The translations under genes and the position numbers were made by a program. Of a stretch of 64,000 nt of DNA, positions 641 through 31,808 are shown piece by piece; the first letter of the stretch is position 1; the number at the start of each line of letters is the position of its first letter. The notes under the pieces are model-generated. The model made no database searches. It had not been told where the DNA came from and saw only the letters and a program-made list of their open reading frames with translations. The DNA is from an uncultured virus (IMG/VR IMGVR_UViG_3300027278_000010) (Duplodnaviria; Heunggongvirae; Uroviricota; Caudoviricetes; Schitoviridae), in the IMG/VR virus record IMGVR_UViG_3300027278_000010; one strand, written 5' to 3'.

Positions 641-654
641 CTGGTGAGGTGCTC

Positions 655-855
655 ATGAGCGAGACAACAAATACGATGGAACAACGCAACGAAAGTCAGC
701 GTAAAACCATCGTTAAGCAAGTGGAGCGCATCAAAGAACTTGAGCTGTGGGAAAAATTCGCAGCTCATTTGCTAAACAACTGTGTCGGTTTAACGGTCAC
801 CCCAGAGAATCTGGAAAAGTGGCTTGAAGACTGCCAAAAACGGAGAACATCTTAG
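655..855 (+). CDS. Hypothetical protein
   Basis: GAGGTG SD before ATG 655; fits gene packing. Confidence 0.65.
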   Translation: MSETTNTMEQRNESQRKTIVKQVERIKELELWEKFAAHLLNNCVGLTVTPENLEKWLEDCQKRRTS

Positions 856-928
856 TAAAGACAACGCTACTGTGATCTCTTTTTTGGGTTGATTAACCCT
901 TTCATCCATCAAGCAATAAGGAACATCC

Positions 929-1126
929 ATGAGCTTCGTTCGTGCAACTCAGAAAAACGGCAAGAAAATCGACATCCGTACTTCGGCCATCGTCGCCATC
1001 CGCGAAGACAACGCCGTTGTCGTGGTTGAAACGGAAGCCGATACTTTCGAGGTAATCGAAGGTATGCAGGCCATCCGCAATCGCATCAAAAAAAGCGAAG
1101 CCGGTGCTGCTGCTGAAGAAGAGTAA
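929..1126 (+). CDS. Small protein, FlbD/SwrD-like pattern
   Basis: AAGGA SD; pattern NGKKIDI..AIVAIRE...VV.T...FEVIE...IRNRI resembles FlbD family by eye. Confidence 0.6.
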   Translation: MSFVRATQKNGKKIDIRTSAIVAIREDNAVVVVETEADTFEVIEGMQAIRNRIKKSEAGAAAEEE

Positions 1127-1144
1127 GCTTTAGCGGTAACCTCT

Positions 1145-1933
1145 AGGTTAATCAGCTTGCATCAGGGAACACTTTGATGTGTGCAACAGCGAAATCAGCT
1201 CAGGGCACTGAGCCAGAAAGAGAAATTCAAGTGGGAGTCGGCCCACCTCAAGTAGCTGCCAAGACACGTACCTCTAACCCGCTCCGGGGCTTGTTACACG
1301 GGCGAAATGTGGACGAATGAGTGAGGCGTCCTGTTAGAGTGTTCCACCTGATGCAAGTTGATTAGTCTTATCCGATAACCTGGAAACAGGTCACATCGGA
1401 CGTAAACACGGCTTATACCCGCAATGGTATTGGAATGGGTGAATCAAGATTCTGAGCTTTGACGATGAGGAACACGGGCATTTATGTCGCCGCAGTTTTC
1501 TAGTGCAAGCAACAGGGAATGAATTTTCACTCATTACCAATACCATTGTGAGTTGATCAGTTTTGCCCGATAGCCTGCATGCAGGGCACATCGGACTTGA
1601 ACACGGCCAATTCTGGACGGGATGCAACACGGTAGTGATCACGCTGCGGAAACTAGGGTTATGGCAGCCTCTGAGAACACAACATCCGTGCCGGGGTTCG
1701 ACTCCCCCATGCGTGGGAATTGTAGGGTGGACGCACCTGACCATGTTCAAGTCCGATGTGCAATATCGCACATCAAAACCAGTTGGGAAGGCGCTTAACG
1801 CTGCCGTTTCATTCCAACTGGGCAGGAAGGTAACGTCGTGAGGCGTCAAGCAATCGGGCCAGGCCGAGCAGGAGCGAAGCCGCCAGGGCCACTAGACCCG
1901 AAGGCCAGCCGGAACAGGCGCAAGCCGGCACCA
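1145..1933 (+). ncRNA. Candidate structured non-coding RNA or RNA cluster
   Basis: Long inverted-repeat stems 1145-1177/1334-1368, 1420-1443/1526-1550, 1586-1603/1744-1761; G-U pairs on + strand; GAAA, GUGA, GCAA tetraloops; T-loop-like hairpin; no credible CDS. Confidence 0.7.
1372..1607 (+). repeat. Two copies of a 41-nt imperfect direct repeat (1372-1412, 1567-1607)
   Basis: ccgataacctggaaacaggtcacatcggacgtaaacacggc vs ccgatagcctgcatgcagggcacatcggacttgaacacggc, 34/41 identical by hand alignment. Confidence 0.9.
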
Positions 1934-1961
1934 ACAAGACCCTGTATTTTCGGAGCAGCAG

Positions 1962-2375
1962 ATGAAAAGCCGTACCAATCTCATCACCCTCCCCAAAGCT
2001 CTACCGCAACGCAGCTACATAACCAAGTCAGGGGGCCAATGGCATCCTGGCGATGTCGCCTTGGCCATGGCTTTGGTAATCCGCATCCACAATACAGCTG
2101 ACGCTATTCGTAAGCTGGCATGGCAGCTAAAAGACAAGGTGTGCTTGGAACACCAACCAAACATGAAGCGTCTTTCCCGAGAACCTGACGATCAAAAAGT
2201 GTGGAATGCTGCGCTGAAAATCGTCAATCGAGTTTGTGAGATGTGGAAGATCTCCCCTGAAATTCCCTTCTTAATCAACAAGATAGTCCCAAAATGTCAT
2301 TTACGTGAAATGCTTTGGGACAAAGACGCCAACGTTTTTCGTTGTCAATTTTGTAGTCACAGCAAAGTGACTTAG
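1962..2375 (+). CDS. Hypothetical protein with C-terminal Cys cluster
   Basis: GGAG SD; 137 aa; ends in C...CQFC. Confidence 0.75.
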   Translation: MKSRTNLITLPKALPQRSYITKSGGQWHPGDVALAMALVIRIHNTADAIRKLAWQLKDKVCLEHQPNMKRLSREPDDQKVWNAALKIVNRVCEMWKISPEIPFLINKIVPKCHLREMLWDKDANVFRCQFCSHSKVT

Positions 2376-2384
2376 CGAGGCTTT

Positions 2385-2699
2385 ATGGGAAAAGTTACGA
2401 AACTGGTGACTGACCCAGACGGAAACAACATGAGGCTCCCTGCCTCGTTTGCTCAAGCTGAAGAACAAGCCGGAGTCCGTCTGGACAGGCGAAGAAACTA
2501 CTTCATGACCACCAAAGCTGTCTTTGTCTTAGTTACTGAGACAATGGCTTGCTCTGGCTGTTCCTGCGACTGTGGGGACATGTATGGCTGCAATCACGGT
2601 GCTTCTGGCTGCCGTGAGTGTGGTTACACAGGTAAACGTCGAGAAACACACCCAGTCCCTCTAGAAAATCAACACTATGAGGTGCCCTCCCCCTTTTGA
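2385..2699 (+). CDS. Cys-rich putative zinc-binding protein
   Basis: GAGG SD; CSGCSCDC and CRECGYTGK motifs. Confidence 0.75.
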   Translation: MGKVTKLVTDPDGNNMRLPASFAQAEEQAGVRLDRRRNYFMTTKAVFVLVTETMACSGCSCDCGDMYGCNHGASGCRECGYTGKRRETHPVPLENQHYEVPSPF

Positions 2700-3386: not shown

Positions 3387-3698
3387 ATGCGTATGCTGTC
3401 CCGTTCCATCCTGTATCTGGCCTCGGCTCTTGCCCTGGCGTTCTCGGGTCTGAGCTATGCTTACGACCTGCCCCGTCCCGAAGTCGTCGCCTACCTCACC
3501 GCTGATTGCGGTAAATTCGGCGTCGCAACCGCGAAGTATGAGGCCAGCCAGGCTCATATGTACGCCCTCAATCGAGAGCGAATACCCAGCTTGTCTGGTG
3601 GTTTGGTGAATGACAGTCATGGCTACCTGCAAGTAAGTGCTGACGAGGTGGCCAAGGGCACGACCGGCAGTACGGTCAGCCTCACTGCCAATACCTGA
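3387..3698 (+). CDS. Putative exported protein with signal peptide
   Basis: GAGGA SD; MRMLSRSILYLASALALAFSGLSYA signal-peptide pattern. Confidence 0.8.
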   Translation: MRMLSRSILYLASALALAFSGLSYAYDLPRPEVVAYLTADCGKFGVATAKYEASQAHMYALNRERIPSLSGGLVNDSHGYLQVSADEVAKGTTGSTVSLTANT

Positions 3699-3713
3699 TC
3701 ACCTGGTCTGCGC

Positions 3714-3740
3714 AAAAAGCCCCCTAAATGGGGGCTTTTT
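3714..3740 (+). terminator. Intrinsic terminator
   Basis: aaaagccccc-taaat-gggggctttt then gttttt. Confidence 0.8.
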
Positions 3741-3774
3741 GTTTTTGAGAACATCCCAACCCTGGAGCTTTATC

Positions 3775-4560
3775 TTGAAACTCATTGAACCAAAAGTATT
3801 CATCATCGGTGAATCTGCTGCCATTCCAGAAGGCATCGAAGCCATGCTTGACCATCTCGGTGTACCTGACTGGACTACCGATGCTCACTCTGACACTGAG
3901 CTGCTCAGTGAGATGGCCGGTAAGCTCTGTTACATGAGCTTCGACACCAGCCTCAACGACAACCTGACCCGCACAGGCACTCGTAACAACGAGAAGTACC
4001 TGCAAGAAGGCATCATTGCCACGAAGCATGGTTCCGTGCTGGAACACACTGTAGTGAACCTGGTGTTGCTGGACGTGTCTCGTGTCCTGACACACGAATT
4101 GGTCCGCCACGGTGATGGCACTGCATTCTCCCAAGAATCCGGTCGCTATGTCCGTCGTGAGCTGGGCATGTATATCCCAGACATCATCAAAGAGAACCCT
4201 GAGCTGCTGGCAGGCTTCATTCAGGCTGCGGAGAACATCGAAGCCCAGTACACCAAGCTGGTAGTGCTGTCCGGTGTCAACGACACCACTGACTTCGACT
4301 GGAAGAAGAAGATGACTTCGGCATTACGCCGCGTCCTTCCTGAAGGTCGAGCCAATGCCATCTTCTTCTCGGCCAACCACCGGGCAATGCGTCACATCAT
4401 CCAGATGCGTACTGATCGGCACGCCGAAGAAGAAGTACGCAAGGCTTTCGTACCCGTCTTTTACGCAATGCTGGAACGCTACCCAGCAATTTACAGCGAC
4501 GGTAACGCCACCGTTGTAAACGGCATCCTCGAAATCAAGTTCAACACTGAAAAAGTGTAA
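3775..4560 (+). CDS. thyX: Flavin-dependent thymidylate synthase
   Basis: HGSVLEH, THELVRH...FSQESGRY, HAEEEVR motifs; likely TTG start at 3775 after GGAG, downstream of terminator. Confidence 0.93.
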   Translation: MKLIEPKVFIIGESAAIPEGIEAMLDHLGVPDWTTDAHSDTELLSEMAGKLCYMSFDTSLNDNLTRTGTRNNEKYLQEGIIATKHGSVLEHTVVNLVLLDVSRVLTHELVRHGDGTAFSQESGRYVRRELGMYIPDIIKENPELLAGFIQAAENIEAQYTKLVVLSGVNDTTDFDWKKKMTSALRRVLPEGRANAIFFSANHRAMRHIIQMRTDRHAEEEVRKAFVPVFYAMLERYPAIYSDGNATVVNGILEIKFNTEKV

Positions 4561-4576
4561 GCCTGTTTCTTGGTGC

Positions 4577-4609
4577 AAAGCCCTAATCAGTAATGGTTAG
4601 GGCTTTTTT
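4577..4609 (+). terminator. Intrinsic terminator
   Basis: aaagccctaatc/ggttagggcttt hairpin plus T-tract. Confidence 0.8.
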
Positions 4610-4648
4610 ATTGAACGGGATTTTCCCACCTACCAACAGGAGCAACAC

Positions 4649-7087
4649 ATGCAAGTCAGCCAATCCGCAGATCACATCACCCATGCTGTAATCGGTAGCC
4701 AAGAATCCGTTGAAATGGGTGTCAGCGACAGTGCAGCTTTGATGCACATTCTGTCATCCACCCTTTACACCTACCCCAAGCTTGCGATGGTCCAAGAGGT
4801 CATCTGCAATGGCTGGGACGCACACATCATGGTCAAAAAGACCAATGTGCCCCTGAATATCGAAATCCGTAACAACCAATTTGTTGTTCGTGACTTTGGC
4901 CCCGGCATCCCTCACGAGAAAATCGGTCAGATTTACGGTGTGTATGGTAACTCCACCAAACGCGACGACTCTCGCCAAACAGGTGGTTTCGGTCTTGGTT
5001 CCAAGGCTCCATTTGCTTACACCGACAACTTTGAGGTCACCTCAATTCACGAAGGTGTGAAGACGGTTTACCGTGTGTCCAAGTCTTCGATGGAAGTTGG
5101 CGGCAAACCCTCCATCAACAAGATCGTGTCCGTGCCGTCTATTGAACCAAGTGGAATCACGGTTCGGGTCAGCATCAAAGAAAACGACATTGCTGAAATC
5201 CAGAGCATGATCAAGTCCACTTTGATCCTGGGTGAAATGCTTGCAAAAGTGAATGATGAAGAGCCTTTAGAAACTCTTCCGCTCTTGGATTCTCCAAGTG
5301 GCTTTATCATCACCAGCGCTATGGGCACCAAGCTCACTCGCATAAATTTGCGATACGGCAACGTCGTTTACCCAATTCCAGTCCACCCTTCGTATGAACA
5401 AGAATGGACAGCAATGAGCCGAGCTATTGGGAATCTCTGGGTCAACGCTAAAATCATTTTCATGGCCCCACCAGACAGCGTGTCTATTGCGCCAAGCCGG
5501 GAAGCTCTTATTCTTACAGATAATACCTTGGCAACTATCAAAGAGTTGTTGGGTTTGTTTGAAGAAAAAGATTTGGATAAAGCGAGTGTCACTGTAAACC
5601 AGTTAGCCCGTAAAACATTCAACGAAGAGCTGAAAAACAAATCGCCTAAAGAATACTTTGAAGTATTTCTTACAGGCAACAGCCGCTTTGATGTAAGCAT
5701 CTCTCCCACGTATGTTGACGACAAAAACTTCTTCAGTTTTCGTAAAGCATTTTTGGGAAGTAAACTTGCTAAAAGTGAGTGGACTATTCCACAAGCAAAA
5801 CGCATTATTCGCTATATCGAAGAGTTCTCTAAAAAAGAACCTCAATTGCGTAAGTTTGCAAAAGACATTCTAAAAACCGTTCGTGTTCTAAAAGGTGAGA
5901 CTCGCGCCTATGAACACATCCACGGTGCTGGTCTATTAAAAACACCAGTAAACAAACACGTAATGGCTCCGGTCGTTATAGGCATTAAAAACGATGAAAA
6001 CATGAAAGCAAATAAGCTTTCTGTTTTAGTCAGAAATCCTCGCTACAGTGCAACACCAATGGCCTGGCCAAAGTTTGAAATAGTAACTGTGGGTGCTTTG
6101 CTTTCGTTTCTCAAAACACGAGTGATGATTGTCAAAAACAAACAAACAATTTCTGAAACTTTTTACGCAGGCTGTCCTACGGATATGCACGGTGCTTGGT
6201 TGATTTACCAAGTAGGACGTAAAGAAGAAGAAGCTGCTTATGCTCTTGATTTCTTCACAAAACTAGGTTTCGAGGTAGTTGTAAAAATACCTGAACCAGT
6301 AAAAGAAGAAGCTGTTTTGGTTGATGGTGTCCCTGTAGTCAAAGAAGTAAAGCCACAGGTTAAATCGCCAAAACGCATTGGTTACTTGTCTCTGGCAAGT
6401 AGCATGGTGCCAAGAACTAAAGAGTTTTTGCTGAATACAGCGCGAGAGAATACTCCAGCAGGGGGTGGTATACATGACCCTGTAGCTTGGGTGGTCCTCA
6501 AAAATAAAAGCGAAGGGGCTAAGACATTTGCCCGTCTGAACGAAGAGGAGTGTTTAGCTATTAATGAACTCTTCGGTGGGCAAATTGCTGTTGTAACTAC
6601 ACCCCAAGCCAATAAACTTTTGAAAGATGGAGTACCTCAATTGTCTAATTTCATTGACAACTACGTGGATCAAAAACTTACAGAAAGCAAAGACTTTCCG
6701 CGTTATATCGCTTTTGGTTATCAAGGCATTGAAGCACGTCATTACGACCGCGCTACTAAAATTGTTTGTGCTGCTGCTTTGCATGAACACGTAATGAAAG
6801 AGCTGAACCTGCGTTTTCATGTTTCCCCGGAAACAGCGATGTTGTTGACGTTTTATAACGCCAACTCCCATCGCCGCGAAACAAAAGAGCGGTTCCCACA
6901 AGCTCACGCTAAAGCTCAAAAAATCAAACCAAATCCGCAATTTGGTAAGTTGGTAAAAAAAGTAGAAAAAAGCCCGTATGTTGCGTTTTTGGATATGGTG
7001 CACCTATCCAGCCGCCTCAACAGTGCTGTTCCTGGTTCTACTGAAAGCGACATTGCAGTTGAACTTTCCCTGAAACTCCTCAAGTAA
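4649..7087 (+). CDS. rIIA: rIIA-like protein
   Basis: N-terminal GHKL ATPase motifs (EVICNGWDAH, RDFGPGI, STKR, GGFGLGSKAPF); adjacent to rIIB as in N4. Confidence 0.9.
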   Translation: MQVSQSADHITHAVIGSQESVEMGVSDSAALMHILSSTLYTYPKLAMVQEVICNGWDAHIMVKKTNVPLNIEIRNNQFVVRDFGPGIPHEKIGQIYGVYGNSTKRDDSRQTGGFGLGSKAPFAYTDNFEVTSIHEGVKTVYRVSKSSMEVGGKPSINKIVSVPSIEPSGITVRVSIKENDIAEIQSMIKSTLILGEMLAKVNDEEPLETLPLLDSPSGFIITSAMGTKLTRINLRYGNVVYPIPVHPSYEQEWTAMSRAIGNLWVNAKIIFMAPPDSVSIAPSREALILTDNTLATIKELLGLFEEKDLDKASVTVNQLARKTFNEELKNKSPKEYFEVFLTGNSRFDVSISPTYVDDKNFFSFRKAFLGSKLAKSEWTIPQAKRIIRYIEEFSKKEPQLRKFAKDILKTVRVLKGETRAYEHIHGAGLLKTPVNKHVMAPVVIGIKNDENMKANKLSVLVRNPRYSATPMAWPKFEIVTVGALLSFLKTRVMIVKNKQTISETFYAGCPTDMHGAWLIYQVGRKEEEAAYALDFFTKLGFEVVVKIPEPVKEEAVLVDGVPVVKEVKPQVKSPKRIGYLSLASSMVPRTKEFLLNTARENTPAGGGIHDPVAWVVLKNKSEGAKTFARLNEEECLAINELFGGQIAVVTTPQANKLLKDGVPQLSNFIDNYVDQKLTESKDFPRYIAFGYQGIEARHYDRATKIVCAAALHEHVMKELNLRFHVSPETAMLLTFYNANSHRRETKERFPQAHAKAQKIKPNPQFGKLVKKVEKSPYVAFLDMVHLSSRLNSAVPGSTESDIAVELSLKLLK

Positions 7088-21425: not shown

Positions 21426-21440
21426 CGGGGGCTTATTTTA
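21412..21440. terminator. Terminator between convergent modules
   Basis: ataagccccc-atgac-gggggcttat-tttt at strand switch. Confidence 0.75.
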
Positions 21441-24400
21441 TTGAACCAAATTCATCCATGGGTTCAATTCTGGAGCACTCAAGCCTTGGCCAGGACCAAT
21501 GGAGTAGTCCAGGGAGCCGTCAACCAGCTTGCTGAAGATGTTATCGGTAGTCGGTAGACCCACTGACCCAAACAAACTAGGAGCAGGTGCTGCGCCTGCA
21601 ATCAGAGCGTGTACGGGGTTGTTGCGGATCATTGACAACGCCACCTTCGTAGAACGGATTTTGAAGTTGTAGAACCAAAGGAGACCAAGGTTCTCCAGCG
21701 TTGCCCGGAAACGACCGGACAGACGATCATAGTTCACAAATTCCTCAGTAATTCGTCCCAGTGCATATTCCTTGGACTTACCCTGACGCTTGACCAGATC
21801 ATCGTACAGCAGAGCTTTACCTAGGAAGTCACCGTACTCCACCGCTTTCTGAAGACCCTGGAACAAGGCAGTGTCCTTGGTGATCAAGGCGTAACGACCA
21901 AGCGTACCCAGAGGCTGTGGCAACTTGTTTACCGCATTCTCAATGTAAGCGTGCAAGCGCCCTTCACTCAGCATGATCTCATCGCGGCTTACACCAGCAT
22001 CCGAAATGGAGCTGAACTCACCAGCCTGGATCAAAGGCCAAATGCTCATACGTTTGTGGCTGTCAGTGATCGAACGAATCTCTGCTTGCAGTCGGCGTTC
22101 GGCAATTGGTTTGCCTACAGCAGCACGCAATTCAGCTTCTGCCTCAATCATGCGCAGACGGCTCTTCACATAAGCGTCAATCTCAGCTGTTTTCTTGGGC
22201 ATACCACGGACGATATTCGCCAGTGGCACACCACGGCCAACCAACTGGAAGACGTTGGACATCAAGTTGGCAACAGGAACAACCACCGACTTAACAACAA
22301 TCAGCACCCGCATGTCGCTCACCAAGTTATTAGTGATTCGCTCAGCATTAGTGAGGTACTGATATGCCTTATTTCCAAAGGCACTGATTGCCAAATTTTG
22401 AACTGCCTTCTGAGTTTCAGGCGACCAACGAGTGTTGCCAGTCCAGGCATCACCGATGGAAGCAGAACGGTAACCCATTGCGTCTTCCAACATATCTTTG
22501 CGGACATAGTATTCGCTGCCAAATACGCTTTGGATGTGGGCACGAGTTTCCGGTGTCAGCAACGACACTGCATCAGCCACAACAGGATCAAGATTTGAGC
22601 CAAACAGATCAACGTACTGATCCTGCTTGCTTGCATCTTCGGCAATGTCCTTGCTGTACATTTCGTATTGAGCATCAACCAAAGCCTTGTTGTAGATACC
22701 AGCAATCGACTCCTCGTGCTGACGACCACGCCAGATGCCGATAGAGACAGCCAGGCTGGTTTCACCCTGCATGCGTTCCATCATCACTGGATCAAGAGCA
22801 CGCTCTACAGCGACAAGCTCACCGTTTTCACCAAAAACAGGCATCAGGCTTTCTGCTTCGGTGTTGTCCTTGAGCATGGCAGTAGCAAAGCGCTTCAGCA
22901 TCACTGGCGATGTGACACGGCCAGCAGTGGCCAAATTACTGTAGCCAGTCACTGCATCCACACCAGACACAGATGTACGGACGTTCTGCATGATGCCTTG
23001 CTCAAAGGTGGCACGGGCAGCTACAGGGGCAAAGTAGTAGCCCTTTTTGAATTTGCTCTTTTCAGCTTTAGAGCCAACGTAATCACCGACACGCACGTAG
23101 CTCTTGCCACGTAGCTTTGCAAAGTCTTTGTCGTCGGCAACAACCATCGACAGCGAGCTAGCAGGTTCACTTGGAATGTGACCTTTGAAAGCGTTCAGTC
23201 GAGCACGGGGAGTTGCCTTGCTCACTTCTTCTTTACGCTGGCCAACCAGATAATCCAATGCAAAATCCATACCCACGGTTTCGTCTTTAGCCAATTGAGC
23301 CAAGACAGCTTTGTCTTCAACTGCCAAGTCTTGCAGGCTGTACATAGTCACCAGCTGGTCAATCGAAGCAACAAAGGTTGCATCCTTCGGTTGGAAGGTG
23401 CCTTGAATCTCCTGCCCAATAAGCATGGAGATGGCTTCAGCATTTCGCAGCAGGTACTGGCCGGCCACACCAGTGTTCATGTACTTGGCCAGCTGCACCA
23501 TCTTGCGTTGGTAAGTGGCGTAGTTGGCTGGATCAATGCCCTGAATGTAGTTCTCCAAGGTAGTGATTTTTGCAGCCAAATCCTGTTCATCAGTCAGCAT
23601 TTTACGGATGGCGTTGTTATCGAAATACGCACGCAGAACGGCCAAGTCAGTTTTACCCATACCACGGAACAGGCTGGACCATTCTTTTTTGCTCAAAGAA
23701 CGGGTGAACTTGTCGGCAATCAGAGTCGGCAGGTCTTCCCGGAATTGCTGACGTGCCTGCTGAATCACAGAACGAACGCCTTTGATCATGTCGTAAATCT
23801 TGGCGTTTGAGTCGGTACGGCCTACCAGGTCATTCAGCAAAGAACGCACCGGTGCCCAGCCATTCACTTTGTTCATGGCCTCAGTCAAACCCTGTGCTGC
23901 AAGAGCACCACGCTCTTCAGAAAGGATCATGCCAATCGCCTGAGCACTTGCACCAACAGCACGAGTAATCGTGTTGTTCTCTGCTTTGTTGAGGTCAGCA
24001 CCTTTCTCATAAGCAGCATCTGCCAACTTGGTCATACCCTCTATGACGATTTCGTTTGCACGGTCAACACCACGTCCAGTGGTCTGAGCAAACTGGTCAA
24101 TGAAGGTTTCGTTGTTCTGTACCTGATCGGCAATGCGTTGGTTAAGGGCATCAATGGCAGCATCGACGGTGATGTCACCTTTCTTGATGCCAGCCAAACG
24201 GCTGGAGAGGCTATCCATTGCAGCGTTACCAGCATTGGTCAGCAGAGCATCAAGACCACCAGAAGTATCCTTTGCTGTTTTAGGCAGCTTCATACCGGAC
24301 AGCACAGAACGGAACTCAGCGTTCACAGTAGCCAATGCGAGGAAAGCAGGCAGCAGACTGGAGCGACCAGCCAAGTCATTCTCGACAAGGTTTTTACCCA

Positions 24401-27400
24401 TGATGCTGTTGAACTTTTCCTGAGCGTAATACCGGGTAGCCGGGTTCAGGCTGTCTGCGTCATCCATGAAATGCTCAACAGTCAGCTGCTTGGTTACCCA
24501 AGAATAAAGCTGCTGTGCAGTGGCCATTGCGTTTGGATCAATAGCTGCTTCTGTAGCCAGAGCAGTGATGATGTTCTCAAACACATGGGCTTCTTGCTGG
24601 GTCATGCTAAAGCCACGAGCCTGGAAAGACTTACCGATGTTCAGGCCAGCCATAATCCCTTTATCAACGGCATCCCGTGGAGCCACTTCACCAGCTCGGA
24701 TAGGTGCGTTCAGGTATCGACCAATCAGTGTCTGGTAAGCCACACCCACATCAGTCAAACGCTGATCTTGGCCGTACTGGCTGTTCTGATAAAGCACGCT
24801 GCTTGCCATACGCTGTGCAGTCGTTGGGTTGCCTCGCATAACAACGGCAGTGTTGAACAGCAAGTTGCTGAACAGGTCATTACCAACATAAGGGGCATTT
24901 TCTTTTTTGAAGAAGATGGCCTTAATGGCTTTCACAACCTCACGAGCAATGCGGGCCATTTTGTCCAGCATGGTCCGCTGACCCAAACGGATCAGACTTT
25001 CATTGGACAGAGACCAAGCCATGAACTCGTTCAGTGCACCGGCTTTGGCCACAGAACCAGGAAGCGAAGCATTGTTCAGGTAGCCCTTGATGGCAGAAAC
25101 GGTGTCGGTGTACGACTGGGCCAGCTGCTGATTAGGCTGATCCAAGTTGTCTTCCATGGCCAGGAACTGTTTCATCATCGACTCGATACGCTGTACCGAT
25201 TCTTTTTCTACAGTGCCCATAGGCTGCTTGTTGTAGTACGCCAACACCTTTTCAAAGGTAGAAGCGTGAATCAACTCATGGATCAAAGTCTCAGTTGATG
25301 GGTTGAACAGGTAGATTGTTTTCTCACCCACGTTGGTGAAGCCCTTGATCTCACCGGCTGGAATAGCACTACCTTGAGCACCAGCAGCACCTGTGGCTTT
25401 GATGTACTCGTTCACTTTCAGCGGGTTACCAAACACAATCTTGTAGCCGTCAGCAGCCAGAGATTTCGTAACCTCATCCAAGACTTTCTGCTGGTCAGCT
25501 GGGAATGTTGTTGCTTTGCTGAATTGCTTCAAGTCACTGCTGTGCATAACAAAAGCACCGCTCTCGTGCTTCTGAGCAACCTGCAAAATAGCAGCAGTGG
25601 AATCACCAGAAGGTGCTTTGTTTTTACGAAGCTCAGCCAACTCTTCTTGGTAAAGGGCATTCAACTCTGAGGTCACTTCCTCATTTGACATCCCGGTAAG
25701 GGCAATCTCACCTGCTTTGAAATAAGGAGAGGCACCAGCAGCCATCTGGTCAACAGAGGTTTCCACCTTGGCCATAACACGATGACGGGCTTCAATGCTT
25801 TCTGCCGCTGTTGTCAGCTTGCCTACCAGGTTCTGCATGCCAGCAACAATCTCAGCATCAGGAACCGGCTTCTTCCACATAGACGGTGGGAACAACGCAC
25901 GAACCAATGCACTACGAGTTGCATCGGTGTACCCGGTCAATGGTGCCTCTTTCATAAAGGCAACATAGCTGTCAGCCACTGCCTGCATTGGGTTGCCCAT
26001 CCAGGTTTCCCAAACAGCCTCGTTCATCTTGACGCTACCATCCTGAATCAGGTCCAGGGGCAAATGCACACCGTCAAAGATTTTGAGAGTGCGATCAGGT
26101 GCACCATTCATGGTGGATGCAATCTGCATCATGTTCGCATCACCTGCCCCGATGTTCAGGAAAGGAATGCCCGACACGCCAGCATTCTTAGGCCCATGAA
26201 TGAATGCGTCAGTACGGAAAGAGCCGTCCAATGCACGGGAAGACTGGGAGGCGTTCACATCCACAGAACTGGAACCAGCAACGTAAAAAGTCTGGTGTGG
26301 GGTTTTGATCAGAGGAGAGAAACGCTCCAATTTTTTGTAGATGCGCTTCAGCTCTTTATCACTGAGGAACTCTGTCTTAGTCCAATCACTGTCAGTCTTA
26401 GCTTTACGAGCCATCTCAGCAGCAACTTGATCTTTGAACAGTTGTTCCAGAATGATCGACTGAACCTGTGTGGCCTGACGAAGAAGCACAGCAGATTCCA
26501 TAGTTGCTGCACCGACAGTCTGCTCAATTGCATTACGCATTGGCTGAACAAACAGGTGCAGCATGCTCGACTGAATGTTGCTGAACTCAGCCGGTGTCAG
26601 TGTGTAAGTTTGAGGATCAACCCCGTCATTACGGGAAGTAGCTACTTTTTCAAGAACAAGCTTCTTCTTGTCCAACGAGACTTTGTAATTACCAATTCGA
26701 TACAGAGCCGAAGTGAATTTCTTGGCCTGCACTTCATCCCCGTTGAACACGGCATCAGCCAACGAGATGGATGGATTATCAATGCGAGCTTGAGCCAACA
26801 GAGACATCTTTTCGTACATCGAGTCAGCCAGTGCTTTGGTTAGCTTGGCAGCAATACCAGTAGCCCCAGAACCGTAAATCGTAATGGTCAGTGGGTTTTT
26901 GGTAATGCCACGATCAAGAACCAAGTTGGTTCCATCAAAGCTCAGAGTAGGCAGCAAAGAATCCATCAGCGACAGCAACTCATTGAGGTGCTTACTCATG
27001 ACAGGATCATTACCCAGAGATTCACGCAGGGTATTTACCTGCTCTTGGAGTACGTCAGTAGTGGCCTGGTACAAGTCTTTCTTGTCGTACTGGCTGTACT
27101 GTTCGTTCGCAGTCATTGGACCACGATTAACAAACAGACCACCTTTGGCCATGTTCTTCAGCCAGCTGGTTGTAAACATCCCAGAAGCAAACAGCATCAT
27201 GGCATTGATTGGCCCGTTGGTAATGCCGTCCGCTTCTAGATACAAGTTGGTAGTGAATGTTGCTTTCTGTGTTGGCGTCAGTTTTCCCAGCCAAGCAAGT
27301 TCAGTGATTACATGCAAAGCAGCTGGAGTCAGCGGAACACCAGCATCAGCAAATGCTTTTTTGATGGTGCCATTCAGCTCAGGGCTTGCTTCGATAACTG

Positions 27401-30400
27401 GGACATTCGCGTCAACCGGCTCAGCAAAGCTACCAAAGAAGCCAGACAGAGCTTCAATAGCTGGAGCCAAAGAACCAGACACAAGCAGCTCTGCTTCAGC
27501 AATTGCAGCATTGGTGTCTTTTTTGTGCACTTTGATATCAAGAGCCTGTGCAGCAGCAAGCATAAACAGCTTACGGCTTTTCCCTTGGTTCATATCGAGA
27601 GTGGTGCGAGTAGGCATGAACAACTCACGAACCATCTTGTTGGCTTGTGGGCTGTACTTACCAAGCATCTGCAAACGACCAACTCGGCTGATATTGAATC
27701 CGTAACGGAAGACAGTTTCACCCAGAGCTTTGCCGTTGTTCCGTGCGTAGTTCGACACAGAATCAAGGTAACCAGTCATGTGCTGGAAAGCTGCAACCAT
27801 GCCACGGTATTTGCCATCTTCAGATGCAGCGTGGTTGATGTTCAGTGTCTTTTGTTCCGGTGGAACCAACCCGAACAAATCAAGCACCTTGTCCATACCA
27901 AGCGACTGGTACAACGCAGCCATACGTGTATCCACGTAGTACGGCGTAGCCTGTTCGTTCTCAATAGCTTCCAACTGCTGTGGTGTGTTCTGCACAAGTG
28001 GGTTGCGCATCTGAGTAGGCGAGACAGGTGGGATTGCATCGTCACCAATGAAATAGGTCTCTTCCGGTTCCAGCATCACTGTCTGCTCAATGGCATCCAC
28101 AAACTTCAACAGTGGGGAACCTTCGCTGTCTTTGGTATCCCGAGCAAACACCATAGGAACAACACGTTCCGGGGTTTTAGGGGTAACACCTTCCACTTTT
28201 GGCAGGGCAATTTTTTTAATCGTCACTGCACCGTTGTCAGCAAAGACACGCAGAATCTCAGAAGCCATGACTTCAGGAATGCCTTTGGTGTAGCCACGCA
28301 GGCCATCCGGGGAAGCTGTAACACCCCAGTAATTTGTGATCTTTGCAGCCAGAGACTGCACAGCTTCAAAGGAGGCCATGCCTTCGTTGAAGTCAGTCAC
28401 CAAGTCCTCAGAGATGACTTCTTCGTTCAGCCCGGTGATTTCAGCCACATCAGTGTGATCCAGAATGGAGCCAAGCTGATCAGCAGTCAGCAGCCACTGG
28501 AGGCCGGCAAGAACAGCACCTTCAACCAATTCTTGGTTGTAAACAAAACTCCCATTTACCTCTTCAGTGATGTTCAGGATTTTGCCTTCAACCCAACGGT
28601 TCACATCCACACCGTTTTTGAATCGCTCACCAACACCTTTCTCGGTCAGGAATTTTCCAAGGTTCTTCTGCAAAGCAGAAACCATCTTGTCACCCAGACC
28701 TAGATAATCCTGGTACGCCGAGATCACGCCAACAGGAATGTCCGTGCCAGTTTTTTGTAGAACAGCCTGGTTCATCGAACTGCTAAGTGCTTGTTTTACA
28801 AAGGCAAGTGGCGCTTCAGTACCAATGGTACGAGTGCGTGGTTCTTCCGGCAGAGTAAACGACTTGGTGAAGTAGTTCACCTTGCCAGCCAGATAAGGGA
28901 AAAGTGCAGCCAGTCCCTGACCAACGGTGGGTGCTTTCACAGGTGCAGGCGCTACTGTAGCTACAGGAGCAACAGTCTCAGCCGGGGCATCGACAACTTC
29001 AGTTACAGGTTCTACCACCGTATCAACGGTTTCTTGGGTAGTTTCTGCTGTGACAGGTTGCACTTCTTCCTGAGCAACAATAGGTGCTTCCGGCACAACC
29101 GTACTGGTAGCATCAGACTCAGCAACAGACGAACGCTGCCGAGCCGCTTTGTAGTCCGAGAAAATCTCAGAAGCTGGTTTGTTCAGTGCCGAATCCAGCG
29201 GAGTAACATCAATATGTTCAACACTCAAATCGGGAAAGGCATCAGCCAACCCATTAAGCACGTCGGCCACGAAAGCCGCTTCACCGGCAATACGTTGAGC
29301 CTTTTCGATAGACTTTTGGTTGCCTGTGTTTACAAACAGACGGGTGTTAGACGACACCCAACTACGATCAGGGGTAAGGGAGTCATAACCGATTCCTGGA
29401 GCTTGCGGATTGCCCGCAACAAAATGTGCATTAAGGGCTTTGACCTTGTTGCCCATGTGCTCCGCAAATTCACGGAGATGGAGCAGGGTGTCAGCTGCGA
29501 GATCACGGTTACCCGCCTTCCACGCAGACATAACTTCCTGTGCAAACTGCACCGCAGATTTCCCCTTCTCACCGTCATCGGTCTTAATATTCCGGGATAC
29601 AAGTTCCTCACGGGAATTGAGTCCGAGACTTTCTGCTTTCGCACTAGCAGAACGTGCAGCACGAAGCAGAGCAACAGTCGTATCTAGTGCAGCCTTTTGT
29701 TCAGGGGTGACGGTCACGTTGCCCTTGGAAACCTGATACAGCACCTGTTCCACAGTCCCCAAATCACCTTTGCCTGGCTCAATAGAAGCCACGGCAATTG
29801 TGTTCTGTACGTTCTGCTGACCTTCAGGGGTAGCGACTGTCTCATCATTGATCACTGGAGGATTGGCTACTTGCTCAGCAGCTACTTTGGCTGCGATCTG
29901 GGCGATACGGGCCATGCCAGCAGTGACTTTGGGGCTACCCATAGCCGATGCCATCATCCCATCGTATTCACGCAGCATAGCGCCTGCTGGGCTGTTCTCT
30001 GGGATAGCGTCATCAGAGAACTCTTCGCTCATCAGAATGTTGTTGATTGGCTCAATGATCTGTTGCAGAGCGTAGCTTGCACTGAGTTGTTCAGACGAGC
30101 CGTCTTCCATTGCATCAATGACATCAACCAGACGTTGAGCAGCTTCGACACGGCTGCTTGAACCAACGAGAGCAGTACGGGCTGCTTCAGGCACATAGGG
30201 ATTTGCCAGCTCTGCTTCATCAAAGCGAGCTGCGGATACCAGCTTGTCGATGTAGCTGTTGGCTTTTGCTTGCTCTTCTGGAGCAGCTTCCGAAGTGGCC
30301 ACAGCCTCACGCATAGCAGCACTGGCTTCTTCTGCGTTAGCTGCTGCACCAGTTGCGGCTTCAAATACAACCGAGTCAGAGATCGGGGAGGCAGCTTCGT

Positions 30401-31808
30401 TTGCTTCACGTACAGCGTCAGCACGGGCACTCAGACTGCCACCAATTGCACTGCCAGCAGCAGCAAGTGTTTTAGCCCCGGTACGAACAGCAGCACCCGG
30501 ACCTTGGGTGATTGCGGTCATGCCTAGACCGTAGAGAGCACCCTCACCAACTTGACGGCCAACGCCTTCAGCCAAGTCTTTGTTTTCATTTGAGATTTGG
30601 GTTTCGGCATAGTTCTGTGCCAGCTGGGAAGCACCACCTTGGATAGCTTCTTCAGTTGGCTCACGAAGTAAGGTACTGGCAGCTTTGGCAATCCCCTGGT
30701 TTACGAAGGGCGCTGCTTCAAACTTGCTGACAAGCGAACCTGTTGCAGCCGCAACCGGGAAGGTGATGGCAGCAGACAGCAAACCAGTTTTGTTTGCCAC
30801 TTCAGCTTTGGCGTCTTCTTGGCTGACATTCTGGCCAATGAGTTCACGGTACATTGGCGACTCAGCCATGAGCGTTTCATGGTCACGGCCCATGATGTCG
30901 GATACGACTTGCTGGTAAGAGCCACCAGCCTCGATACCACCAATAGAAGTAAGCACAGGTGCTGTCTTGCTGATTGCAGCAGCAGTGCTTGCAGGAACGG
31001 CTGTCTTAACAGCAGTGGGCAACACTGCACCACCGAGGGCACGAACACCTTTGCTCAAAGGACCAGCTGCAAGCAGGGAACCAAGAGCATTCAATGTCCC
31101 GTCTGCGAGGGTTGAACCGTCCATAGTCGAGTTGGTAACGCTGTCGATTGCATCGCGGCCAATTCGTTTAAGGCCAGCCACAAAGTCACCATCGGTTTTA
31201 GCTTCAATGGTTTCTTTGTATGCGTTCTCACGCTCAGTGTTGAAGTTGGCAGCTTCCATGACTTCACGGCGATTTTGTAGGGAATCAGATTGGGTGCCTT
31301 TAGCCCAATCCATTGCTTCCCCAACTGCATCAGCAGTCCAAGCACCGGCATCTTGATCCAGGATACCCACGCCAAGCGAGGCCAGCCCACCCAGAGCACC
31401 ACCTAATCCGGTAGCAACACTGGTCACCCCATCAGCCACATCACGAATTGGGCTGGGGTTTTGCGAACTCATGTCGTACTGAACCTGAGCAGCAGCATTT
31501 GCACGCTCAGCAATCATGTCGGTAGCAGCACTGCCGTATTTGCCTCGCAGCTGTGCTGCATTCAAACCACGAATGTCTTGCTCAAGTTCAGGAGCTGCAT
31601 CATCAGGCAAACCAAGCAAACGACCAGCAGCCATTTGATAGCTGCTACCCAAACCTGCTTTTTTGGTCTCAGCAACAGAGGCAACCGATTCTTTCTTTTG
31701 ATCTAAAAGACTGGGTTGAGTTGGGGTCAGTTCCATCGCCGGAGCTTCCCACTTATTAGTTGAATCAGGGCCAGCTGCTTGAGAGAGCAGTTTGTTAATA
31801 TCAACCAT
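21438..31808 (-). CDS. Virion-encapsidated RNA polymerase (N4 gp50-like)
   Basis: 3456 aa; RVGRLQM, motif A EADGITNGP, motif B RGITKNPLTITIYG, motif C IFDG; no Cys seen. Confidence 0.97.
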   Translation of the reverse strand: MVDINKLLSQAAGPDSTNKWEAPAMELTPTQPSLLDQKKESVASVAETKKAGLGSSYQMAAGRLLGLPDDAAPELEQDIRGLNAAQLRGKYGSAATDMIAERANAAAQVQYDMSSQNPSPIRDVADGVTSVATGLGGALGGLASLGVGILDQDAGAWTADAVGEAMDWAKGTQSDSLQNRREVMEAANFNTERENAYKETIEAKTDGDFVAGLKRIGRDAIDSVTNSTMDGSTLADGTLNALGSLLAAGPLSKGVRALGGAVLPTAVKTAVPASTAAAISKTAPVLTSIGGIEAGGSYQQVVSDIMGRDHETLMAESPMYRELIGQNVSQEDAKAEVANKTGLLSAAITFPVAAATGSLVSKFEAAPFVNQGIAKAASTLLREPTEEAIQGGASQLAQNYAETQISNENKDLAEGVGRQVGEGALYGLGMTAITQGPGAAVRTGAKTLAAAGSAIGGSLSARADAVREANEAASPISDSVVFEAATGAAANAEEASAAMREAVATSEAAPEEQAKANSYIDKLVSAARFDEAELANPYVPEAARTALVGSSSRVEAAQRLVDVIDAMEDGSSEQLSASYALQQIIEPINNILMSEEFSDDAIPENSPAGAMLREYDGMMASAMGSPKVTAGMARIAQIAAKVAAEQVANPPVINDETVATPEGQQNVQNTIAVASIEPGKGDLGTVEQVLYQVSKGNVTVTPEQKAALDTTVALLRAARSASAKAESLGLNSREELVSRNIKTDDGEKGKSAVQFAQEVMSAWKAGNRDLAADTLLHLREFAEHMGNKVKALNAHFVAGNPQAPGIGYDSLTPDRSWVSSNTRLFVNTGNQKSIEKAQRIAGEAAFVADVLNGLADAFPDLSVEHIDVTPLDSALNKPASEIFSDYKAARQRSSVAESDATSTVVPEAPIVAQEEVQPVTAETTQETVDTVVEPVTEVVDAPAETVAPVATVAPAPVKAPTVGQGLAALFPYLAGKVNYFTKSFTLPEEPRTRTIGTEAPLAFVKQALSSSMNQAVLQKTGTDIPVGVISAYQDYLGLGDKMVSALQKNLGKFLTEKGVGERFKNGVDVNRWVEGKILNITEEVNGSFVYNQELVEGAVLAGLQWLLTADQLGSILDHTDVAEITGLNEEVISEDLVTDFNEGMASFEAVQSLAAKITNYWGVTASPDGLRGYTKGIPEVMASEILRVFADNGAVTIKKIALPKVEGVTPKTPERVVPMVFARDTKDSEGSPLLKFVDAIEQTVMLEPEETYFIGDDAIPPVSPTQMRNPLVQNTPQQLEAIENEQATPYYVDTRMAALYQSLGMDKVLDLFGLVPPEQKTLNINHAASEDGKYRGMVAAFQHMTGYLDSVSNYARNNGKALGETVFRYGFNISRVGRLQMLGKYSPQANKMVRELFMPTRTTLDMNQGKSRKLFMLAAAQALDIKVHKKDTNAAIAEAELLVSGSLAPAIEALSGFFGSFAEPVDANVPVIEASPELNGTIKKAFADAGVPLTPAALHVITELAWLGKLTPTQKATFTTNLYLEADGITNGPINAMMLFASGMFTTSWLKNMAKGGLFVNRGPMTANEQYSQYDKKDLYQATTDVLQEQVNTLRESLGNDPVMSKHLNELLSLMDSLLPTLSFDGTNLVLDRGITKNPLTITIYGSGATGIAAKLTKALADSMYEKMSLLAQARIDNPSISLADAVFNGDEVQAKKFTSALYRIGNYKVSLDKKKLVLEKVATSRNDGVDPQTYTLTPAEFSNIQSSMLHLFVQPMRNAIEQTVGAATMESAVLLRQATQVQSIILEQLFKDQVAAEMARKAKTDSDWTKTEFLSDKELKRIYKKLERFSPLIKTPHQTFYVAGSSSVDVNASQSSRALDGSFRTDAFIHGPKNAGVSGIPFLNIGAGDANMMQIASTMNGAPDRTLKIFDGVHLPLDLIQDGSVKMNEAVWETWMGNPMQAVADSYVAFMKEAPLTGYTDATRSALVRALFPPSMWKKPVPDAEIVAGMQNLVGKLTTAAESIEARHRVMAKVETSVDQMAAGASPYFKAGEIALTGMSNEEVTSELNALYQEELAELRKNKAPSGDSTAAILQVAQKHESGAFVMHSSDLKQFSKATTFPADQQKVLDEVTKSLAADGYKIVFGNPLKVNEYIKATGAAGAQGSAIPAGEIKGFTNVGEKTIYLFNPSTETLIHELIHASTFEKVLAYYNKQPMGTVEKESVQRIESMMKQFLAMEDNLDQPNQQLAQSYTDTVSAIKGYLNNASLPGSVAKAGALNEFMAWSLSNESLIRLGQRTMLDKMARIAREVVKAIKAIFFKKENAPYVGNDLFSNLLFNTAVVMRGNPTTAQRMASSVLYQNSQYGQDQRLTDVGVAYQTLIGRYLNAPIRAGEVAPRDAVDKGIMAGLNIGKSFQARGFSMTQQEAHVFENIITALATEAAIDPNAMATAQQLYSWVTKQLTVEHFMDDADSLNPATRYYAQEKFNSIMGKNLVENDLAGRSSLLPAFLALATVNAEFRSVLSGMKLPKTAKDTSGGLDALLTNAGNAAMDSLSSRLAGIKKGDITVDAAIDALNQRIADQVQNNETFIDQFAQTTGRGVDRANEIVIEGMTKLADAAYEKGADLNKAENNTITRAVGASAQAIGMILSEERGALAAQGLTEAMNKVNGWAPVRSLLNDLVGRTDSNAKIYDMIKGVRSVIQQARQQFREDLPTLIADKFTRSLSKKEWSSLFRGMGKTDLAVLRAYFDNNAIRKMLTDEQDLAAKITTLENYIQGIDPANYATYQRKMVQLAKYMNTGVAGQYLLRNAEAISMLIGQEIQGTFQPKDATFVASIDQLVTMYSLQDLAVEDKAVLAQLAKDETVGMDFALDYLVGQRKEEVSKATPRARLNAFKGHIPSEPASSLSMVVADDKDFAKLRGKSYVRVGDYVGSKAEKSKFKKGYYFAPVAARATFEQGIMQNVRTSVSGVDAVTGYSNLATAGRVTSPVMLKRFATAMLKDNTEAESLMPVFGENGELVAVERALDPVMMERMQGETSLAVSIGIWRGRQHEESIAGIYNKALVDAQYEMYSKDIAEDASKQDQYVDLFGSNLDPVVADAVSLLTPETRAHIQSVFGSEYYVRKDMLEDAMGYRSASIGDAWTGNTRWSPETQKAVQNLAISAFGNKAYQYLTNAERITNNLVSDMRVLIVVKSVVVPVANLMSNVFQLVGRGVPLANIVRGMPKKTAEIDAYVKSRLRMIEAEAELRAAVGKPIAERRLQAEIRSITDSHKRMSIWPLIQAGEFSSISDAGVSRDEIMLSEGRLHAYIENAVNKLPQPLGTLGRYALITKDTALFQGLQKAVEYGDFLGKALLYDDLVKRQGKSKEYALGRITEEFVNYDRLSGRFRATLENLGLLWFYNFKIRSTKVALSMIRNNPVHALIAGAAPAPSLFGSVGLPTTDNIFSKLVDGSLDYSIGPGQGLSAPELNPWMNLVQ

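Follow-up and report, generated by a model that had tools for sequence, protein, structure and literature searches.

Stem-closed RNA modules, including two previously undescribed RNA families, in a gene-free island of an N4-like phage genome

The 64,000-nt stretch of DNA analysed here (the window; IMG/VR record IMGVR_UViG_3300027278_000010) is most of the genome of an N4-like (Schitoviridae-type) phage, and it contains a gene-free block at 1127-1961 that is built of long-stem domains. We propose, with a probability of about 60%, that this block constitutes an island in which stable RNA genes, independent of one another and read from the + strand, are closed by stems of their own: it would be the counterpart of a cluster of transfer RNA (tRNA) and small stable RNA genes, without a canonical tRNA. 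Domain 1, and domain 3 together with the tail that follows it, are two distinct, previously undescribed RNA families. Each occurs apart from the other in further phages and varies in ways that keep its pairing on the + strand, domain 1 is present or absent as a unit in two otherwise near-identical relatives, and tRNA genes occupy the corresponding place in other relatives. To judge from the sequence comparisons, both families are under selection that preserves their structure, and their members are exchanged between phages as whole cassettes, temperate phages included. The literature on N4-like phage non-coding RNA, phage tRNA-like structured RNA, tRNA-like decoys and T4 species 1 RNA yielded no description of these RNAs.

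Two RNA families in the block

The original prediction, made from the letters alone, had seen in the block three consecutive domains, each closed by a long stem, and this architecture is borne out. Long inverted repeats were recovered by a repeat search and their pairs then counted explicitly: the stem of domain 1 (1143-1180/1330-1372) has 30 Watson-Crick and 6 G-U pairs, a 2-nt bulge and no A-C, that of domain 2 (1417-1446/1522-1553) has 24 Watson-Crick and 3 G-U pairs, a 1-nt bulge and no A-C, and that of domain 3 (1586-1603/1744-1761) consists of 18 perfect pairs, with 23 Watson-Crick pairs across the aligned segments 1584-1612/1735-1763. An outer stem (1554-1580/1845-1872) is weaker (18 Watson-Crick, 3 G-U, 2 A-C and 3 other positions), and a further predicted stem, the fully paired hairpin of the linker after domain 3 (Table 1), was confirmed. 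When one fixed stem detector was run on the whole window and on the shuffled block alike, three of the six window stems of at least 19 bp (loop 40-300 nt) lay within the block, and none of 500 dinucleotide shuffles of the block gave any. The remaining three, of 19 bp, are at 2882-2900/2974-2992, 29645-29663/29801-29819 and 59346-59364/59457-59475, the last among small + strand open reading frames (ORFs) at 59-64 kb. Folded as a whole, the + strand of the block reaches -312.8 (z -4.4), and none of 20 shuffles was as good.

Relatives of the block were collected with dCTP deaminase as an anchor (80 IMG/VR and 80 metagenome loci), and window 641-2400 was compared by blastn with 162 loci. The closest loci are L085, L086 and L089 (76-78% protein identity), the first two being identical over locus positions 3501-5000. 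In L086 the same two genes flank a gap of ~765 nt (3831-4595), and domain 1 is the only part of this gap shared with the window (1153-1357 versus L086:4085-4282; 79.5% identity over 205 nt). Other long-stem modules make up the rest, one of them enclosing the hairpin GUCAGGGA-UUCGUC-UCCCUGAC, and at the end of the gap, as read from the sequence, a G/C-rich hairpin of 14 bp and then UUUUCU immediately precede the DUF7740 start codon. Near-identical to L086 in other respects, L089 has none of the ~200 nt of domain 1, from base to base of its closing helix; no target duplication was seen at the junction. The absent module spans L086:4085-4290, the counterpart position in L089 being ~1000, and the 3' arms of neighbouring modules are like one another (...CAGAUGCAGA and ...CGAUGCAAGA). 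Because of this likeness, MAFFT misplaced the left flank when aligning L086 with L089, and the indel was therefore read from blastn and the sequence; the same likeness could mediate the gain or loss of domain 1.

A third copy was reached through a weaker blastn match, in a complete 76-kb N4-like genome (L073/L168, G003). The covariance model R1, built from these three copies (window, L086 and L168), returned nothing beyond its training sequences in 162 sources, and by this model domain 1 is present in one of five complete 75-76 kb relatives. Two more copies were found with a gapped pattern of two conserved core strands. One is in L174/G009 (117.9 bits), an N4-like contig to judge from its virion RNA polymerase, SSB and primase, and the other in L180 (97.4 bits), an Acidovorax contig from a metagenome-assembled genome that carries a CI-like repressor and is temperate. 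The pattern CGTACCTCTAACCCGC gave three stretches in viral contigs, of which one was the twin contig of the window and two were chance occurrences in unrelated sequence with no further likeness to the domain. The family accordingly has five members, four in N4-like phages and one in the temperate contig, with R1 scores of 97-208 bits. In their alignment both partners change in 28 of 44 pairs, among them every one of the 13 that form the closing helix, and 92.2% of the cells pair, as against 36-43% when the partners are slid by 1-3 columns; no shuffle out of 500 attains any of the observed measures. Two core strands, GCAACAG and AGCUGCCAAG, are near-invariant, and domain 1 has no tRNA feature.

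The surroundings of these copies differ. In L180 domain 1 comes after a sigma-70-like promoter (TTGACG, 16 nt, TAGAAT; 10 of 12 positions); an intrinsic terminator precedes this promoter, and all three elements lie on the RNA strand. Downstream of domain 1 in L168 come, in the same orientation, a hammerhead-like motif and a run of six tRNA genes, and in G009 further long-stem modules and a tRNA-like gene. In these two, domain 1 is co-oriented with tRNA or tRNA-like genes; the window itself has no tRNA gene. The hammerhead-like motif (L168:1694-1743, + strand, in G003) begins ~25 nt after the domain 1 copy; its CUGAUGA...GAAA core is intact and helices II and III are closed, helix I is open, and its score of 25 bits (E 0.03) is below the Rfam cut-off of 48.5. 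Within the window no hammerhead was found. In G009 a small hairpin motif, GACACCC(C/A)GGAAAGAC(G/U)GGG, occurs twice (L178:5741-6930, - strand). Each occurrence immediately precedes a long-stem module, in one case the copy of domain 1, and the motif might serve as a promoter or as a signal for processing.

Domain 3 has a different distribution. A pattern made of both arms of its stem led to a full copy, L169, in a 34.6-kb, 62% GC temperate phage (G008) that encodes an integrase, an Ant anti-repressor and a sigma-like regulator. The copy, which lies on the same strand as the neighbouring G008 genes, aligns with window 1581-1932 at 80.5% identity over 354 nt, and the extent of this match defines the unit as domain 3 plus ~170 nt, ending ...GCCGGCACC. 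In the two-sequence consensus fold all 91 pairs hold in both the window and L169. Seven pairs change on both sides, four of them in the closing helix, and each of the nine one-sided changes gives G-U or U-G on the + strand and an A-C mismatch on the other. Pair 1610-1720, for instance, goes from A-U to G-C, and pairs 1611-1719 and 1612-1718 go from U-A to U-G; in the slid controls for domain 3 plus tail, 31-40% of positions paired, with no double change. A 1-nt and an 8-nt indel relative to L169 place 49 nt that differ by a single C-to-T change in different frames, which indicates that the tail region is non-coding.

A partial copy was recovered as a 314-nt contig from run X1. Its match is confined to 1589-1758, where it differs by 27 substitutions and 4 indels, and the sequence on either side does not resemble the window. 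The listed changes, which leave out four of the differences, concentrate in the inner hairpin of domain 3, where pairs are compensated at 1649-1662 (G-U to U-G), 1651-1660 and 1652-1659 (both A-U to G-C) and 1631-1687 (G-C to U-A); because of indels, no score could be given to the changes at 1639/1640 with 1673/1674 and at 1679. The covariance model of domain 3, R2, scores the window and the G008 copy at 211.9 and 210.3 bits and found only these two in 169 sources (165 + 4), and a pattern for the tail likewise returned only the two known copies from viral contigs. As a separate observation, G008 also encodes a reverse transcriptase (L177:4645-5811, - strand; phrog_1423, E 2e-118), 4.4 kb downstream of the RNA.

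The core of domain 3 has a tRNA-like element that the original prediction had overlooked. The closing helix leads into an acceptor-like helix, which encloses a long irregular hairpin (1628-1690) plus a T-arm, and the 3' strand of this helix runs straight on from the T-stem, as does the acceptor stem of a tRNA. The T-arm, whose loop fits UUCRANY, is kept in L169 (loop UUCGAAU, stem GGGG/CCUC with a G-U on the + strand) and in the X1 copy, where the sole change is C to A at loop position 1702; forcing it costs 0.6 kcal/mol relative to the minimum-energy fold. The only hairpin after it is a small one at 1725-1738, and no D-arm is recognisable. As modelled, the core would mimic in shape an acceptor stem and T-arm that has neither D-arm, anticodon arm nor CCA. 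A pattern of the T-arm had no match in 185,579 species genomes. Beyond the closing helix, the variable linker is poorly conserved (16 nt are deleted in L169), whereas the 3' tail has long stretches identical to L169, up to 1932, where the homology stops.

That the block acts as + strand RNA and not as DNA cruciforms, as had been predicted, is supported by the covariation, by one-sided changes whose G-U pairs exist on the + strand alone, and by the conservation of the T-loop and of a GNRA loop. The individual signs on which the prediction had relied fared unevenly. Its bias towards G-U on the + strand is present in domains 1 and 2 (9 G-U, 0 A-C) and is reversed in the closing stem of domain 3; of its tetraloops, GAAA (1383) and GUGA (1838) do cap 5-bp stems, and GCAA (1353) turned out to lie inside the 3' arm of domain 1, where a loop is not credible. 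Two analyses that it had suggested, a comparison with Rfam, in which no family matched in the block, and covariation among homologues, which is compensatory in both families as detailed above, gave results in its favour. Its idea of a single system did not hold, domain 1 and domain 3 plus tail being different families with separate distributions.

The island in its genome and in related phages

The phage has a virion RNA polymerase ORF of 3456 aa on the - strand (21438-31808) and, on the + strand, a block of early/middle genes with dCTP deaminase (146-640), ThyX (3637-4560), rIIA, helicase, DNA polymerase and primase. The island (Table 1) is bordered upstream by a 65-aa ORF (929-1126, phrog_7594) and downstream by a 137-aa DUF7740 ORF (1962-2375) whose start codon directly abuts it; a gap poor in ORFs had been claimed at this place, and the flanking ORFs do end at 1126 and start at 1962. 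By tblastn the DUF7740 protein matches 63 phage records, of which 62 belong to Pseudomonas phages. None of the ORFs within 1127-1961 matches a PHROG family. An antisense ORF (1391-1849) was rejected as coding, having no PHROG match and a frame broken by the four indels of the X1 copy, as was an ORF at 1838-2101, in which indels relative to L169 shift the frame though the nucleotides are conserved.

Table 1. Features of the gene-free island and of its modules (window coordinates)
Feature	Position	Strand	Description
Non-coding island	1127-1961	+	Between the 65-aa ORF and the DUF7740 ORF (ORF map, family scans)
Domain 1	1143-1372	+	Multi-helix stem-closed RNA; covariance-model core 1166-1345; closing helix 1143-1180/1330-1372
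Direct repeat, copy 1	1356-1412	+	57 nt, 81% identical to copy 2
Domain 2	1417-1553	+	~27-bp closing stem around ~75 nt
Direct repeat, copy 2	1551-1607	+	Overlaps the 5' arm of domain 3
Domain 3	1586-1761	+	tRNA-like three-way core within the closing helix 1586-1606/1741-1761
Acceptor-like helix	1608-1624/1708-1722	+	13 bp, two small internal loops (consensus fold with L169)
T-arm	1693-1707	+	GGGG-UUCGACU-CCCC: 4-bp stem, 7-nt loop (read from sequence)
Variable linker	1762-1832	+	Hairpin 1779-1788/1812-1821, 10 Watson-Crick pairs
GNRA hairpin	1833-1846	+	Loop GUGA, GGGA in L169; stem U-G to C-G
3' tail domain	1856-1932	+	Closed by 1856-1864/1924-1932; ends ...GCCGGCACC

A blastn search with 1100-2000 had no match in 50,697 phage records, the region is absent from the closest phage record (G001), and an IMG/VR contig (L001) is 100% identical over 1-2400 and hence uninformative for comparison. 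The phage DNA is contained in three DNA sequencing runs, labelled marine.

Domain 2 folds to -51.7 kcal/mol on the + strand (z -5.24) and to -44.1 on the - strand, the + strand being more stable by 7.6, and it had no blastn match in the 162 loci. It is bracketed by the two copies of a 57-nt direct repeat that had escaped the original prediction. Copy 1 contains a hairpin with a GAAA loop (1371-1400; fold z -4.55) and duplicates the 5' arm of domain 3, its segment 1392-1411 being 85% complementary to 1741-1760; with this second 5' arm, two alternative pairings are possible. Domain 2 looks like an insertion that arrived with the duplication.

In related phages comparable places hold tRNA genes or long-stem domains. 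Five tRNA genes directly follow the dCTP deaminase gene in L033, and in both Zuri and Arace01, which are Pseudomonas phages, dCTP deaminase is followed by an unannotated gap of 400-500 nt with long-stem domains (z -4.7 and -5.8). From these tRNAs and long-stem domains we take the locus type to be an island of tRNA and stable RNA genes, which the window phage fills with non-tRNA modules only. Zuri, Arace01 and an IMG/VR relative also have cloverleaf-like units of 91-101 nt (L002:2652-2749, L004:1811-1901 and L007:5692-5792), each with a T-arm, a long variable-arm hairpin and the encoded end GGCUCCA. These units are called by neither ARAGORN nor Rfam and are unannotated in the records.

Known RNA classes were searched for with covariance models and tRNA finders. 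Rfam has no match in the window at gathering score; over 900-2200 there were only two matches, both with E of at least 6, and RF00005 gave none there even at E up to 10. ARAGORN called no tRNA and no transfer-messenger RNA (tmRNA) in the 64 kb, and the covariance models of GOLLD, ROOL, other large Rfam RNAs, riboswitches and ribozymes had no match. The earlier statement that the block contains no recognisable tRNA, tmRNA, intron or ribozyme is therefore correct as far as Rfam and ARAGORN go, and it missed the T-arm on its acceptor-like helix. A tmRNA was rejected because neither ARAGORN nor Rfam reports one and the T-arm lies ~225 nt before the only ACCA-like end. A group I intron was rejected as well: there is no Rfam match, the flanking ORFs are complete, the same pair of genes flanks different contents in L086, and the L086/L089 junction lies between other non-coding modules.

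Weighing the island of RNA genes against other explanations

Several observations weigh against an island of independent + strand RNA genes. The block folds almost equally well on the - strand (-310.6, z -4.7), so that folding energy cannot tell the strand, and in the closing stem of domain 3 all three non-canonical positions are A-C and none is G-U. No transcript data and no RNA run containing the sequence were found, nor was a promoter or terminator match in the window itself. The families are small (n = 5 for domain 1; two full copies and one partial for domain 3); the alignment of the five domain 1 sequences was fitted to its model, and the structure of domain 3 was derived from the same two sequences in which its changes were counted, 6 of 500 shuffles reaching the observed values. 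Domain 2, having no relative, has no covariation. The tail (1833-1934) is the most conserved part and yet has no thermodynamic signal (z +0.42). The tRNA likeness of domain 3 is partial, since D-arm, anticodon arm and a properly placed CCA are missing. With no tRNA gene in 64 kb, the label of a tRNA island rests on the relatives, and R2 finds nothing in Zuri or Arace01, so that the domains of similar plan there are not detectably homologous; MAFFT gave no credible common alignment of five long-stem domains.

GOLLD and ROOL are large, highly structured RNAs that are borne by phages and prophages and lie near tRNA genes, and the block might be one such ornate RNA of ~800 nt, a single particle of which the domains are sub-structures. 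We consider this unlikely. The domains are contiguous with no ORF between them, both the block and its equivalent in L086 (z -11.85) fold far better than shuffles, and the outer pairing 1554-1580/1845-1872 could join the parts; the 5' arm of that pairing, however, is outside the homology with L169. In other genomes domain 1 is found without domain 3 plus tail, and the latter without domain 1, with different neighbours; L089 lacks domain 1 and keeps the rest, and L086 shares only domain 1 with the window. The block thus splits into independently distributed modules, unlike GOLLD and ROOL, to which Rfam gives no match even at E up to 10.

The modules could also be decayed tRNA slots, in which the long stems are leader-trailer pairings and the contents non-functional remnants. 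Relatives do have tRNA arrays at the corresponding place, and domain 3 retains a T-arm and an acceptor-like helix, has no anticodon arm and is not called by ARAGORN. Compensatory changes in domains 1 and 3 are not expected from decay: 28 of 44 pairs covary in domain 1, all 91 are kept in domain 3 plus tail at 80% identity, both families persist in distant types of phage, and domain 1 never shows a tRNA feature. We find this explanation improbable.

Elements acting at the DNA level, such as miniature inverted-repeat transposable elements (MITEs), recombination sites or cruciforms of an origin or of packaging, would account for some sharp boundaries. The segment by which carriers and non-carriers of domain 1 differ stops precisely at the two ends of the domain 1 inverted repeat, the homology of X1 to domain 3 begins and stops at repeat ends, the three copies of domain 3 agree completely in 14 bp of its repeat, and the - strand folds as well as the + strand. 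Against this stand the single copy per genome, the lack of a target duplication at the L086/L089 junction, the conserved multi-helix structure of the interiors, the G-U-type changes that pair only on the + strand and a T-loop and GNRA loops that are read on it; and since all 13 pairs of the domain 1 terminal repeat covary, its sequence is not conserved as a transposase binding site would be. The MITE candidate was rejected on these grounds (covarying terminal repeat, single copy, no duplication), and we regard a DNA element in general as quite improbable.

YrlA-type bacterial Y RNAs combine a long terminal stem with a tRNA-like module that has a T stem-loop, can be tandem and also occur in phages (Chen et al. 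2014, PMC4201824). Domain 3 follows the same plan, a long terminal stem enclosing a variable hairpin and then a T stem-loop, and has GUCCGA in its stem at 1751, so that it might recruit a host Ro60 (Rsr) and PNPase. We hold this to be very improbable, for domain 3 is built differently: no D stem-loop is recognisable after the T-arm, the closing stem continues an acceptor-like and not an anticodon-like helix, GUCCGA belongs to the 3' strand of a perfect duplex and lacks the bulge, and GNCGAAN0-1G is absent from the 5' part of domain 3 and occurs only at 1301 and 1312, inside domain 1. A Ro60 gene is not nearby either, the TROVE domain matching none of the 60 ORFs scanned in the 64-kb window and none of three related records, the complete Zuri and Arace01 genomes included, in a scan that did match the control genomes.

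That the block is a cis-acting leader, riboswitch or attenuator of the DUF7740 gene, or the 3' untranslated region of the upstream gene, is hardly credible. The block does run directly up to the start codon of DUF7740, and the L086 gap lies between the same pair of genes. In Zuri, however, no leader of this kind precedes the DUF7740 homologue and the gap with structured RNA is in another place, domains 1 and 3 stand beside unrelated genes in other phages, and L086 has a strong hairpin and T run just before DUF7740.

Known counterparts, possible mechanism and meaning

That phage tRNA clusters also harbour additional small stable RNAs has been known for 50 years; species 1 and 2 of T4 are examples, and we know of no function for these two. 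They are the closest known kind to the modules described here. In the T4 record, species 1 (rnaC, annotated as a small stable RNA) and species 2 (rnaD) lie beside tRNA-Arg; like the window modules, they are phage non-coding RNAs from a type of locus shared with tRNA genes, with which domain 1 is co-oriented in L168 and G009. T4 rnaC (fold z -4.6) resembles domain 3: its ends pair, and it has long hairpins together with the canonical T-arm CCGGG-UUCGAAU-CCCGG. The window modules differ in being larger (~140-350 nt), in their closing helices of 20-35 bp, in the lack of a canonical tRNA nearby and in being present also in unrelated phages, and neither R1 nor R2 found anything in the T4 tRNA region, which indicates no homology to rnaC or rnaD. 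Unnamed tRNA-like candidates in IMG/VR are reported in PMC10690425, and the passages of PMC2330249 consulted contain nothing on rnaC or rnaD.

A mechanism may be suggested by the architecture. The island would be transcribed on the + strand together with the neighbouring early/middle genes, and would comprise three or more RNA genes, every one of them self-contained, with a ~20-35 bp closing helix formed by its own two ends. These helices may be portable stalks for processing and stabilisation, comparable to those of ribosomal RNA (rRNA) precursors and of T4 species 1 RNA, and a double-strand-specific nuclease would free each module from a read-through transcript. In rRNA operons, long leader-trailer helices are cut by RNase III, and T4 species 1 RNA is an RNase III substrate. 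Processing of the RNase III type is plausible here by analogy with the latter; the rRNA stalks, in which paired ends likewise loop an RNA out of a longer transcript, are alike in architecture only. Once released, domain 3 might show its acceptor/T-arm mimic to a tRNA-recognising factor; candidates would be enzymes of modification or processing, or else a host defence directed at tRNA.

The original prediction had suggested, as a speculation, that the RNAs serve as decoys or sponges. Such a role is conceivable; nothing pointing to retrons, type III toxin-antitoxin systems or CRISPR turned up. It is tempting to go further and to speculate that stem-closed RNA cassettes are a mobile class of phage genes, with the terminal helix as a portable signal for processing and insulation, and that the domain 3 mimic titrates a tRNA-directed host factor or defence. 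We put this forward as a doubtful, tentative idea. If it were true, such cassettes could enter any transcript and be swapped between unrelated lytic and temperate phages.

The block adds to phage biology two new RNA families supported by covariation and akin to the small stable RNAs of phage tRNA clusters. In these phages such RNAs come as modules with a long closing helix of their own, which can replace tRNA genes and travel between unrelated phages. The old question of what small stable RNAs do becomes testable with defined, separable units, and the tRNA-like face of domain 3 suggests which host proteins to look for. The pattern of stem-closed modules may be general in phage genomes and little annotated.

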